A stretch of DNA of 64,000 nucleotides from an uncultured Candidatus Saccharibacteria bacterium (lineage in GTDB: Bacteria > Patescibacteriota > Saccharimonadia > Saccharimonadales > Saccharimonadaceae), in NCBI GenBank assembly GCA_964608555.1, contig CAZSPU010000002.1, positions 1,395-65,394 on the forward strand, given 5' to 3'. Made by a program: the position numbers and the translations under genes. Within the stretch, counting starts at the first letter, position 1, and every line of letters starts with the position of its first letter. This document shows positions 9,457-23,687 of the stretch, piece after piece. The notes beneath the pieces are model-generated. The model was not told the DNA's origin. It searched no databases and saw only the letters and a list, made by a program, of their open reading frames with translations.

Positions 9457-9530
9457 ATTACAATCAAAAACCCGCACGAGGCTAACTCGCATGATATGTA
9501 CATGATAGCACAGTTGAGCTATTTTGTCAA
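9457..9530 (-). ncRNA. Promoter plus ~40-nt hairpin motif, candidate sRNA (copy A)
   Basis: TTGACA-17-TATCAT followed by ATATCATGCGAGTTAGCCTCGTGCGGGTTTTTGATTGTAAT; nearly identical to 23167-23206. Confidence 0.45.
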
Positions 9531-16448: not shown

Positions 16449-16721
16449 ATGTCACATGTGAAAGCTGGCGGTACCGCCAAAAATATCCACAACAATGCTG
16501 GTCAGCGTCTTGGTGTGAAGCGCTTTGGTGGCCAAAAAGTGCGCAATGGCGAAGTTTTAGTACGCCAAACCGGCAGCACGAAAATCGCTGGCGAAGGCAC
16601 ATACATGAGTCGCAATTTTACCATTCATGCCGCCAAAGACGGAGTGGTTACTTTTGTTAAAACCAAGAAGTCTCATTTTTCTGGCAAAAACGTACCTCGC
16701 GTTCGCGTCGAAGTTCGTTAG
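16449..16721 (+). CDS. rpmA: 50S ribosomal protein L27
   Basis: MSHVKAGG...GQRLGVKRFGGQKV..GEVLVRQTG...NFTIHA. Confidence 0.95.
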   Translation: MSHVKAGGTAKNIHNNAGQRLGVKRFGGQKVRNGEVLVRQTGSTKIAGEGTYMSRNFTIHAAKDGVVTFVKTKKSHFSGKNVPRVRVEVR

Positions 16722-17118: not shown

Positions 17119-17134
17119 ATGGTCGAGTAAGGCT

Positions 17135-17193
17135 TTCGACTTTTTTGCATGCTTATGCTTGTGTTTTTGAAAGAAATGGTGTTAGTCTCTATA
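17135..17193 (+). promoter_or_regulatory. 59-bp block identical to reverse complement of 23538-23596; contains putative promoter of small ORF A
   Basis: TTCGACTTTTTTGCATGCTTATGCTTGTGTTTTTGAAAGAAATGGTGTTAGTCTCTATA, including TTGAAA-17-TATA. Confidence 0.8.
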
Positions 17194-17293
17194 GTATAGA
17201 GTAAAAATGGGCGTTTGTATCAATACTAAGATACTAGAGGCCTTGCATATTAACATTAATGCTGGGTGGGAGCGGGAAAAGGAGAAATAGTTT

Positions 17294-17386
17294 ATGAGTT
17301 TCAGTTTTAAGATTCTAGTATTCTTTATTAGCATCAGTGTTCACTGGTGTGAAATAAAAATTACCGTCGCTTTGAAGCGCCGGTAA
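17294..17386 (+). CDS. Small hydrophobic peptide, putative type I toxin (module A)
   Basis: MSFSFKILVFFISISVHWCEIKITVALKRR*; AGGAG SD; 3' end lies in a hairpin; convergent TTGACC-17-TAAGCT promoter downstream; paralog at 23349-23444. Confidence 0.55.
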   Translation: MSFSFKILVFFISISVHWCEIKITVALKRR

Positions 17387-17519
17387 TTTAAAACCTTCTT
17401 AATTCCAGCTTACCAAGCTTTCTTGGCGAGGTCAAGTCCTTTTTACTCTATATGAAGAAATTTATTATCATTTGGAATTATACCGTTTTTCTACTTTCGA
17501 TATTCTCAACTTACTTACT

Positions 17520-18869
17520 TTATGACAGCTGATCCGAGGTTTGAGCGGACAACCTTTTACGATTGACCGCCACGCAAAGCAGCGACATGATTAACATTAG
17601 CCCGATAGTTATGATAATTTCTGGATTAATGCCGTACCAGATAATTTGTTGGTAAGTTGCTTGGTTGAAACCGAGCATTGCTTGGATGCCTAATAGTTCT
17701 TGGTTAATGATGCTAAATGACAAAACGATTATACTAGCTAAGCCAAAAGCAAAAATTACAGCGCCCAGCATCAGCTCAAAAAAGTAACATAAATAAATTA
17801 AACCGACCTGCAGTCTGGTAGCGCCCAAACTATAATATAGGCTAATATTGCGTTGGTCTTGATCGACAAGTCTGATGCTCGTAAAAATAACAACGATCAT
17901 CGCAATTACACCTAGAAAGATTGAAGTCAAATTGATTACGAATTGCATAGCGTTAAAAATATATAAAATATCTAGCGGCATGCCTGCAATATGAGTGACG
18001 AAATATGTGCGATTAGGTAAATCTATGTTGATAAATTTGCCTTTACCGTGCCGAAAATAATTATAGGCACTTTGAAGATTTTCAAACATCACCAAAAGCG
18101 ACTCGCGATCATTGTCGATAGCACCTAGATTTTGAGAATCATCTACTTCGGCGACTTGCCAATGCACGGACTGGCCATTGTCTATGATAATTGACGAAGC
18201 GCCAAGTGTCGGAATTAACTCGAGAATAGGATTAAGTAGATTGTGGTTATTACGTTCAAGTTGTTGTAAAGATAAATTACTAATGTGAAAACTGCCTGGC
18301 GTTAAGCCAACAACAAAATATTTTGCGCCATAAGAATCGGTAAAAGTTTGGCCAATCACGCTGTCGCGATATTCTTCGTAGGTTTTCTGTTTGCTGACGG
18401 CATTACCAGCGAGAGCGGGAAAATGTTGATAAAGCAATATTTCGCTTAAAGAAGTTGAGACTAGCACTGGCGCGGCGTCGGTGGGCACTTTTGATAAGTC
18501 AACTTGAATCGCATTGCTAACGAGATTTTCTGGCACAATAACGCCGCCAAACACGCTAAACCGTTCCACATCGCCTAGTATGCGCCCACTATGAGCGGTA
18601 ATATCGTCGATCATAGCTTCGCGAGTAACGCTTGGTGTAGTTTCGTCGGCAATTATACCATTAGTATTATTAGTCGCTTCCAGAATAACCTTGCCATCAG
18701 TCGCAGCGCTGGCTAGTTTAATATAAGAATTTTCTAAACCCTGCAACCATAAGTTCATTGCAAAGATGAGTCCGAAAATAATCCCCATAACCATCACAAT
18801 CATCAAATTACGGCGGAAGTAAACCCTAATATTGCTCAGGCTAATACGCAGTACGTCTTTAATTTTCAT
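17520..18869 (-). CDS. ABC transporter permease (FtsX/MacB-like)
   Basis: N-terminal TM, large extracellular loop, C-terminal TMs with 'ISLYYSLGAT'. Confidence 0.8.
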   Translation of the reverse strand: MKIKDVLRISLSNIRVYFRRNLMIVMVMGIIFGLIFAMNLWLQGLENSYIKLASAATDGKVILEATNNTNGIIADETTPSVTREAMIDDITAHSGRILGDVERFSVFGGVIVPENLVSNAIQVDLSKVPTDAAPVLVSTSLSEILLYQHFPALAGNAVSKQKTYEEYRDSVIGQTFTDSYGAKYFVVGLTPGSFHISNLSLQQLERNNHNLLNPILELIPTLGASSIIIDNGQSVHWQVAEVDDSQNLGAIDNDRESLLVMFENLQSAYNYFRHGKGKFINIDLPNRTYFVTHIAGMPLDILYIFNAMQFVINLTSIFLGVIAMIVVIFTSIRLVDQDQRNISLYYSLGATRLQVGLIYLCYFFELMLGAVIFAFGLASIIVLSFSIINQELLGIQAMLGFNQATYQQIIWYGINPEIIITIGLMLIMSLLCVAVNRKRLSAQTSDQLS

Positions 18870-23133: not shown

Positions 23134-23206
23134 TTGACATTTTAGCATAAGTGTGATAGGATGAGAATATCATGCGAGTTAGCCTCGCGCGGGTTTTGAT
23201 TGTAAT
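23134..23206 (+). ncRNA. Promoter plus ~40-nt hairpin motif, candidate sRNA (copy B)
   Basis: TTGACA-17-TAGGAT, then ATATCATGCGAGTTAGCCTCGCGCGGGTTTTGATTGTAAT, at the same spacing as copy A. Confidence 0.45.
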
Positions 23207-23348
23207 ATGCGGTTTAGTATACAGTACATCGTGCTTATTGATTTGATGAAATGGTATTAGTAGAGAATGCGGGGCTTGATCTCTATAGAGCAAATTAGAC
23301 TTGACCAGATTAAAAAGTTTTGATAGAGTAAGTATTATATGGTTGTAG

Positions 23349-23444
23349 TTAGCGTCGCTTCTTTGAAGTGACGCTAATTTTTATACCAAACCAAAACAGT
23401 TCAATACAAAACACTAAGGATTTAATCCGAAAACTAATACTCAT
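23349..23444 (-). CDS. Small hydrophobic peptide, putative type I toxin (module B)
   Basis: MSISFRIKSLVFCIELFWFGIKISVTSKKRR*; GGAGG SD; convergent TTGACC-17-TAGAGT promoter near 23301-23329; 3' hairpin. Confidence 0.55.
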   Translation of the reverse strand: MSISFRIKSLVFCIELFWFGIKISVTSKKRR

Positions 23445-23537
23445 AGCGACAACCTCCTTCCTCCCCACCTCGATCTTTGGTAAAGTACCCAGCCTATGAT
23501 ATTTTGTTCAAATACCTACGCCCAATTTGCCCTATGT

Positions 23538-23596
23538 TATAGAGACTAACACCATTTCTTTCAAAAACACAAGCATAAGCATGCAAAAAAGTCGAA
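23538..23596 (-). promoter_or_regulatory. 59-bp block identical to 17135-17193
   Basis: Exact reverse-complement match, upstream of small ORF B. Confidence 0.8.
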
Positions 23597-23687
23597 GAAC
23601 ACACATGTAGATATTTCTGGCACAAAACACCAGAAGAACGCCCCGAAAGGCAAGGGGCGTTCTGGAAAGTAATTATATTTGCGTGTA

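Follow-up and report, generated by a model that had tools for sequence, protein, structure and literature searches.

The window analysed here is a stretch of 64,000 nucleotides from an uncultured Candidatus Saccharibacteria bacterium, the genome of which (G000) is an assembly of 0.99 Mb in 44 contigs. An intergenic repeated unit of about 330 bases (17121-17453), here called module A, follows cassette 6 in the interval that is bounded by rpmA (16449-16721) on one side and, on the other, by an ABC permease gene of convergent orientation (17520-18869, minus strand). The original prediction had placed a putative type I toxin-antitoxin module at 17135-17450. A conserved block does start at 17135, with 94% identity to 23526-23596 on the opposite strand, and the left-hand similarity between copies ends abruptly at about this position; the right-hand similarity, however, ends at about 17453, and the unit must be extended to this point, which is also the end of the 3′ strand of an RNA-closing helix.

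The A-type copies of the unit, to which module A belongs, have in common an upstream terminator on the plus strand (17121-17147; hairpin at 17121-17141), in which a 7-pair stem is followed by TTTTTG and which forms part of the A-type unit. Genome-wide, the sole context of this terminator is that of four A-type copies following a cassette, and it is absent after all the other cassettes (of a total of 281). In our reading of the sequence, it is a shield of the module against read-through from rpmA and cassette 6. A paralogous unit, module B, is also present in the window (23275-23609, minus strand), with an ORF of 31 residues (23349-23444, minus strand) and an antisense promoter at 23301-23329 on the plus strand. 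Beside module B, there is a strong TTGACA-17-TAGGAT promoter preceded by TG and followed by a conserved hairpin of about 40 nt (23134-23206, plus strand), a second copy of which is found between cassettes (9457-9530, minus strand); this is a candidate small RNA outside the module.

A two-part promoter motif, which may be written for the whole family as TTATGCTTG / -35 TTGTGT, 18 nt, TGt-TAGTCT, precedes every copy of the unit. For module A, it occupies 17151-17188 of the plus strand and consists of a GCTTATGCTTG block, the -35 element TTGTGT (17159-17164), an 18-nt spacer, and TGt followed by the -10 element TAGTCT (17183-17188); in G083, a mouse-gut Saccharibacteria MAG that also carries modules, its form is TATGCTTG...TGCTACACT. 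A sense promoter block had been predicted, and the conserved block is indeed present from 17135, but the hexamers had to be corrected to those given here. An overlapping match, TTGAAA (17167-17172)-17-TATAGT (17190-17195), is not conserved in other species and was dropped as main promoter, as its use would also remove 7 bp of the conserved helix described below. Since this helix starts 5-8 nt past the TGnTAnnnT -10 element in every lineage, TTGTGT-18-TGt-TAGTCT (17159-17188) is singled out as the working promoter. The idea that the sense promoter was lost in the copies B_C3b and B_C12 proved to be wrong, as the family promoter is present in both and their 5′ helix strand covaries with its 3′ counterpart.

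Promoters of this class (TTATGCTTG, 15-19 nt, TGnTAnnnT) occur about 25 times in G000. They are found before all modules, in tandem upstream of several B-type copies, and also before comM (apparently leaderless) and the genes of two large secreted or membrane proteins; sites of the class are C10:22491, C10:3338, C4:40390-40531, C15:18710-18764, C24:532 and C8:31997. The class may be the marker of a shared regulon (competence or DNA damage?), or it may simply represent an extended -35 preference. The case for co-regulation with recA is weak, as the motif lies about 240 nt upstream of this gene, which has its own promoter. Additionally, in a locus of G083 (L016, on contig 23), a perfect 22-bp inverted repeat surrounds about 60 nt at a distance of about 60-150 nt upstream of the module promoter, and its right arm includes the TATGCTTG promoter motif; this repeat might act as a terminator or operator, or it might represent a small fold-back element.

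The predicted sense RNA (17195-17453, plus strand) would comprise about 259 nt, with a 99-nt leader (the original prediction gave about 100 nt), the ORF and a 67-nt 3′ UTR. We infer both of its ends, the start near 17195 from the -10 element together with the spacing of 5-8 nt to the helix, and the 3′ limit from the point at which both the helix and the repeated unit stop. Its minimum free energy is -71 kcal/mol (z -4.3). One element of the fold, unnoticed in the original prediction and recovered both by RNAalifold and by single-sequence folds, is a closing helix of 16-22 bp in which the first bases of the sense RNA pair with the last. Its 5′ strand (17194-17212, plus strand) pairs with 17436-17453 at -21.7 kcal/mol (z -4.6; 0 of 300 shuffles). 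The 3′ strand (plus strand) is also the A-rich stretch upstream of the antisense -35 element, and the repeated unit ends with it in all copies.

Across the copies of G000 and G083, the closing helix has z values from -2.6 to -6.2, and compensatory changes are observed in the B copies, in B_C3b, in G083 and in other species. For instance, the helix of the B copies is maintained by exchanges of A-U for U-A and of U-A for C-G and by G-U pairs, while B_C3b has a quite different 5′ strand with a matching 3′ strand (-27.3 kcal/mol). In G083, the helix is made of unrelated sequences, ACGGAACC... pairing with ...GGUUCCGG at -26 to -30 kcal/mol, and further species also have unrelated yet complementary ends at the same places, so that the sequence of the helix differs per lineage. 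Other parts of the RNA covary as well. A leader hairpin (GTATC...GATAC, 17217-17234, plus strand) is kept through double-sided changes (e.g. UA to CG, AU to GC) in alignment columns 16-20 with 29-33, and a second long-range helix joins 17239-17246 to 17426-17433. No U-tract follows the closing helix. The folds of several copies suggest that the ribosome-binding site pairs with the 3′ UTR, although not better than in shuffled controls; as the predicted anti-ribosome-binding-site stretch is inside the antisense target, binding of the antisense RNA could equally open the site.

Complementary segments of this kind could also be those of a small mobile element, the “helix” being its terminal inverted repeats, or the unit could be a part or by-product of the hypervariable cassette system; together, we hold these explanations to be very improbable. 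The reading as terminal inverted repeats fails on two points. The G-U pairs of the helix work on the sense strand alone and would turn into A-C mismatches in DNA or in an RNA of the opposite strand. Moreover, about 60 nt of the repeated unit lie to the left of the 5′ helix strand, which places the complementary segments inside the unit and not at its ends. Furthermore, neither a transposase gene nor a target-site duplication was seen. What speaks for a relationship with the cassettes is their proximity, which is considered below with the copies.

Within the predicted sense RNA, a ribosome-binding site (AAGGAG in a purine-rich block, 17279-17284, plus strand) is located 9 nt before the ATG at 17294, which opens an ORF (17294-17386, plus strand) for a 30-residue peptide with a hydrophobic core, a KRR tail and a net charge of +4. 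The Shine-Dalgarno sequence and the basic-tailed 30-residue peptide of the original prediction are, thus, where it had put them. A strong GGAGG-type site is found 5-9 nt before the ATG in 15 of the 16 species inspected. Moreover, among the six frames, this is the only one without a stop in all eight distinct variants (six from G000 and two from G083), and their peptides align over 30 columns without internal gaps although the DNA differs by about 40-60% and silent sites are close to saturation. The pN/pS ratio ranges from 0.33 to 0.97, with values of 0.33-0.68 in most pairs; the highest value is that of the module A peptide (A1) against its closest relative (G83a). There are also conservative replacements, such as K/R by AAG/CGG, for which two bases had to change. 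On the other hand, the pN/pS values lie only moderately under 1, and the C-terminal motif I-K-I-T...K-R-R is partly forced by the U-tail and stem of the antisense gene, so that peptide conservation at this end says little. Considering the sequence data as a whole, translation of the ORF is probable.

The peptide of module A is hydrophobic (GRAVY 0.93), as had been proposed, and AlphaFold2 predicts a single helix for it (residues 3-29, pLDDT 85), which is weak evidence for so short a chain. The description as a small hydrophobic peptide does not, however, extend to the family: the peptides of G000 are its most hydrophobic members, one variant of G083 has a GRAVY of -0.19, and the relatives are mostly basic and amphipathic (GRAVY from -0.5 to +0.4, net charge from +2 to +11). 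Consequently, a single transmembrane helix cannot be considered a family trait. No family in Pfam, NCBIfam, PADLOC, PHROG or the PDB sequences matches the peptide, and an Rfam search with the module gave nothing near gathering scores.

Upstream of the peptide ORF, a frame of 27 codons (17207-17290) starts with the ATG found at +12 of the sense RNA and stops 3 nt before the ATG of the peptide. In three other A-type copies, this frame is fused in frame with the peptide, giving a 58-residue product that is the only member of the family in the public protein collection, as a gene call. A role of this upstream ORF as a mok-like frame was considered and rejected, as it lacks a ribosome-binding site, falls within the closing helix and does not occur in the B-type and G083 copies.

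The convergent promoter of the original prediction, TTGACC-17-TAAGCT, was recovered on the minus strand (17407-17435), with TTGACC at 17435->17430, a spacer of 17 nt and TGg-TAAGCT, the hexamer at 17412->17407, which includes a TG at -15/-14. The hairpin that had been noticed over the last codons is likewise present, AAATTACCG...CGGTAATTT (17358-17389, minus strand), and it covers the last nine codons of the ORF and also its stop codon. Folded as minus-strand RNA, this hairpin reaches -17.1 kcal/mol (z -4.3) and is followed by AAUUUUUAUUU, whereas only AAAACC follows it on the plus strand, the U-tail being confined to the antisense strand. The hairpin and its tail would, therefore, form an intrinsic terminator for the convergent promoter. 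The predicted antisense RNA (17350-17400, minus strand), which promoter and terminator delimit, would have about 50 nt, made up of a 5′ tail of 10-15 nt, the hairpin and the U-rich tail. It would be fully complementary to the final 11 codons of the ORF plus the initial 14 nt of the 3′ UTR, lying wholly within the sense transcript; its 5′ tail is not complementary to the ribosome-binding site.

This antisense gene is well conserved. The promoter (TTGAC[CG], a 17-18 nt spacer of freely varying sequence, and TAnnnT, usually preceded by TG) is kept in 11 of 12 variants from three genomes and is also found in covariance model matches from 15 further species. In 11 of the 12 variants, again from three genomes, a hairpin of -14 to -25 kcal/mol with a U-rich tail is found 10-15 nt past the promoter. 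In an alignment of 11 sequences, 89.6% of the cells of the hairpin pair and 7 of its 14 pairs have changed on both sides, with a covariation score of 0.41 against 0.23 in shuffles (0 of 500 shuffles reach the observed value) and at most 0.16 in slid registers. Summed over these 11 variants, G-U pairs number 16 in the minus-strand fold and 2 in the plus-strand fold, and the minus-strand fold is the more stable in nine, which indicates that selection acts on the antisense strand or its transcript. The promoter is kept by 13 of 14 copies with an intact ORF, the exception being one copy in G083. In addition, two copies in G549, another Saccharibacteria MAG, have an ORF cut to 13 codons and an intact antisense gene. 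That intact ORFs keep the antisense promoter while copies with a broken ORF keep the antisense gene is the asymmetry to be expected of a toxin-antitoxin pair.

The G549 copies, which retain the RNA features despite their short ORF, may also be read differently, namely that the two RNAs alone are functional, as regulators: a closed sense RNA (about 260 nt) with an ORF that is incidental or only of use in cis, and the antisense RNA that pairs with it. The closing helix, the hairpin and both promoters are, in fact, the best conserved parts of the unit, and the peptide motif is, as discussed, partly dictated by the terminator. However, this explanation leaves a strong ribosome-binding site at the right distance from an open frame in 15 of 16 species, and it is difficult to reconcile with a single frame of six that is open in all variants, pN/pS values below 1 and two-base conservative replacements. 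As there is also no match to any Rfam family and no evident target gene, we regard the reading as regulatory RNAs alone as quite improbable. By contrast, we are highly confident in the anatomy itself, as deduced from the sequence: a closed mRNA with a small, translated ORF, accompanied by an antisense RNA in cis.

The genome contains ten copies of the unit, five of A type and five of B type (module B of the window being one of the latter), of which one is split over two contig ends, and the same anatomy is kept in all ten, a recurrence that goes far beyond chance. A diverged eleventh module is found on contig 4 (C4:26200-26640), with 50.6 bits against R1, a covariance model that represents the antisense gene. 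The module has a hydrophilic ORF of 60 codons that does not stop in the hairpin but continues across it, and it is kin to 30-residue peptides in the genomes G117 and G010, with which it makes up a third subfamily of the same RNA layout. Elsewhere in G000, the terminator hairpin of a gene (C8:36714-36744) has 87% identity over 31 nt to the hairpin of module A, which may mean that a module once stood there or that the two terminator sequences have converged.

The cassettes themselves are very abundant, with 281 copies of about 210 bp in 118 clusters, amounting to about 61 kb or about 6% of the genome. Their fixed arms are TTCGTGCGTAGTG ... CTAGTACGGTAGGGATAATGGTAATG, both in the window (392-30731) and in the whole genome, and their reading frame may resemble the C-terminal half of a FISUMP/DUF1566-type lectin domain. 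Nine of the ten modules lie within 200 nt of a cassette, compared with about 21% of the non-cassette, non-ORF DNA, although the link is overstated because the copies are not independent. Likewise, G083 has about 92 cassettes of its own arm type, CTACTAATAATGGATAATGATAA, which adjoin its modules. While these data speak for the unit as a part or by-product of the cassette system, module B and the diverged copy of contig 4 have no adjoining cassette, which speaks against it. The association may be functional, stabilising the arrays, or it may simply reflect a common preference for permissive intergenic sites.

With R1, 44 of 150 other genomes (species) of the same genus were matched at E<=0.01, and 31 at E<=0.001, with several copies in many of them and up to 13 in one. 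No match at E<=0.001 was obtained in about 150 genomes of 120 other genera of the order, a search that doubles as a specificity control. In 15 of the 16 species whose best match was read, the opposite strand has a ribosome-binding site and an ORF of 23-41 codons that stops in the hairpin. Other approaches found far less. BLAST of the module against 60 relatives gave nothing, and the peptide profiles reached only G083 because the peptides are too short and diverged; it was the covariance model that later showed the wide spread. An exact-pattern scan of species genomes added a single genome, G549, and one chance match. Pattern scans of JGI metagenome contigs and viral contigs yielded chance matches or none, there was no match in plasmid and phage collections, and a search for contigs encoding the peptide returned nothing. 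Among 1.84 billion representative proteins, only the 58-residue gene call of G000 itself and a junk repeat were found.

Taken together, the sequence evidence gives somewhat better than even chances that module A is one copy of a new, genus-wide, multi-copy family of the type I toxin-antitoxin kind. The originally predicted layout of a small ORF with a basic tail and a 3′-overlapping convergent antisense gene turned out to be conserved, covarying and multi-copy, and its description as an unannotated family in a CPR genome is in line with the lack of any library match and of any paper that we could find on type I systems in Saccharibacteria or Patescibacteria. As expected of the class, the sequence holds a protein of fewer than 60 residues with its own ribosome-binding site, a complementary antisense gene and a structured mRNA with its closing helix; the many copies in intergenic repeats, the narrow taxonomic range and the self-contained nature of the units are also those of the class. 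The T1TAdb paper lists, as key determinants of type I toxin mRNAs, long-distance interactions of the 5′ and 3′ ends as well as stem-loops that serve as 3′ terminators (PMC8594479), and the features of the module match the structural descriptors used to find type I loci (PMC8594479). Membrane-associated type I toxins commonly have fewer than 60 residues, a helical structure and a cationic C-terminus (PMC8309996), and the module A peptide fits these features with its 30 residues, predicted helix and KRR tail. The usual assumption of a membrane toxin is, however, weakened by the low hydrophobicity across the family. A leader-peptide attenuator was rejected, as no copy has a downstream gene on the same strand.

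In the model that we favour, a sigma-70-type promoter would give rise to a sense RNA of about 260 nt, the first 16-22 bases of which would pair with the last, enclosing the strong ribosome-binding site and the 30-codon ORF for the basic peptide in a closed fold. This full-length, closed mRNA would be stable and poorly translated. The convergent promoter in the 3′ UTR would produce the RNA of about 50 nt, with its short 5′ tail and terminator hairpin, which would pair with the sense mRNA, probably at first loop to loop at the two complementary hairpins. The duplex would then be cut by RNase III, which is encoded in the genome, and little peptide would be made as long as the short-lived antisense RNA persists. 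A drop in the level of the antisense RNA, or a trimming of the 3′ strand of the closing helix (the trimming being a conjecture), would allow the peptide to be made. With its helix and its basic tail at the C-terminus, the peptide would then harm the cell, the membrane being the most likely target.

The same anatomy could also serve a product that is not a self-poison. The peptide would then be a small basic one under antisense control with another role; for example, it could act on membranes or bind nucleic acids, either as part of the epibiotic lifestyle or as a weapon against the bacterial host. In favour of such a role, most peptides of the family are amphipathic, strongly cationic and not hydrophobic, like antimicrobial-type peptides, their N-terminal halves are highly variable between copies with identical flanks, and the promoter motif is common to secreted-protein genes and comM. 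Nevertheless, the peptides have no signal peptide, no export or processing gene adjoins any copy, and the units are self-contained and often located between convergent genes. Additionally, the presence of multiple, lineage-restricted copies in which each ORF has its own antisense gene is the pattern of selfish toxin-antitoxin loci. We consequently judge a different role of the peptide to be unlikely and retain the toxin-antitoxin interpretation.

As a type I system, the module would have a mixed design. With TxpA/RatA, BsrG/SR4, BsrE/SR5, YonT and SprG/SprF it shares converging promoters and an antisense RNA on the 3′ side, over the end of the ORF (PMC8594479). These Gram-positive systems with 3′ overlap are also similar in their small peptide with a basic C-terminus and in having RNase III at hand for the duplex. 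The antisense RNAs of TxpA/RatA-like systems have about 100-220 nt and extend past the end of the mRNA. The predicted antisense RNA of the module, by contrast, would have only about 50 nt and be wholly inside an mRNA that is closed by a 5′-3′ helix, and there is no similarity to the Gram-positive systems in sequence or Rfam. Specifically, Pfam and NCBIfam gave no match to TxpA at E<=10 and Rfam no match to RatA near the gathering score.

The closure of the full-length toxin mRNA by a 5′-3′ long-distance interaction is, in turn, as in the Gram-negative systems Hok/Sok and AapA1/IsoA1. AapA1 is an amphipathic helix of 30 residues whose basic end is needed for toxicity (PMC8309996), and the module A peptide also has 30 residues, a predicted helix and a basic end. 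In these two systems, however, the antisense RNA targets the 5′ leader or start region, while that of the module lies over the 3′ end of the ORF. Searches in Pfam and NCBIfam showed no homology of the peptide to Hok or AapA, and, of the defining features compared, the 5′-3′ interaction is the only one in common.

The convergence of two genes on one shared hairpin is also a property of Fst/RNAII (the par locus of Enterococcus). In par, this hairpin terminates both RNAs, and pairing takes place at 5′ repeats outside the overlap, whereas the hairpin of the module has a U-tail on the antisense strand only and would not act as a shared bidirectional terminator. The peptide matches no Pfam family at E<=0.1, and nothing places it in the Fst family within Fst/Ldr. 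The organisation as repeats has a parallel in the LDR and QUAD repeats of E. coli (ldr/rdl and ibs/sib), which are intergenic, several hundred base pairs long and repeated several times in the genome, with a small ORF and an antisense RNA concealed in every copy. The module likewise consists of multi-copy intergenic repeats with a small ORF and an antisense RNA, although the sequences, the peptides and the antisense positions are unrelated. As judged by its predicted features, the layout of the module resembles a hybrid, with the 3′ overlap of TxpA/RatA, BsrG/SR4 and SprG/SprF, and the closed mRNA and embedded antisense RNA of Hok/Sok and AapA1/IsoA1.

According to a review from 2021, Proteobacteria and Firmicutes were the only phyla from which type I toxins of the membrane-associated kind were known (PMC8309996), and our full-text literature searches found no paper linking type I systems to Saccharibacteria or Patescibacteria. 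In chromosomal super-integrons, moreover, toxin-antitoxin cassettes protect the array from deletion. A much bolder proposal may be built on this precedent, to which we give little probability: that the candidate phyla radiation has, in these modules, its first addiction systems with an RNA antitoxin, that they lie beside the hypervariable cassettes because they guard these recombination-prone arrays from deletion, and that their mostly non-hydrophobic, highly basic peptides are a new kind of type I toxin.

If our analysis is confirmed, obligate epibionts with genomes of about 1 Mb would be spending DNA on ten or more antisense-controlled small-peptide modules, and these would constitute the first covariation-supported family of regulatory RNA pairs defined in this group. 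The combination of a 3′ overlap like that of the Gram-positive systems with a closed mRNA and a fully embedded antisense RNA like those of Hok and AapA would also bear on the evolution of such systems. The R1 covariance model is ready for the annotation of these loci, which gene callers miss.
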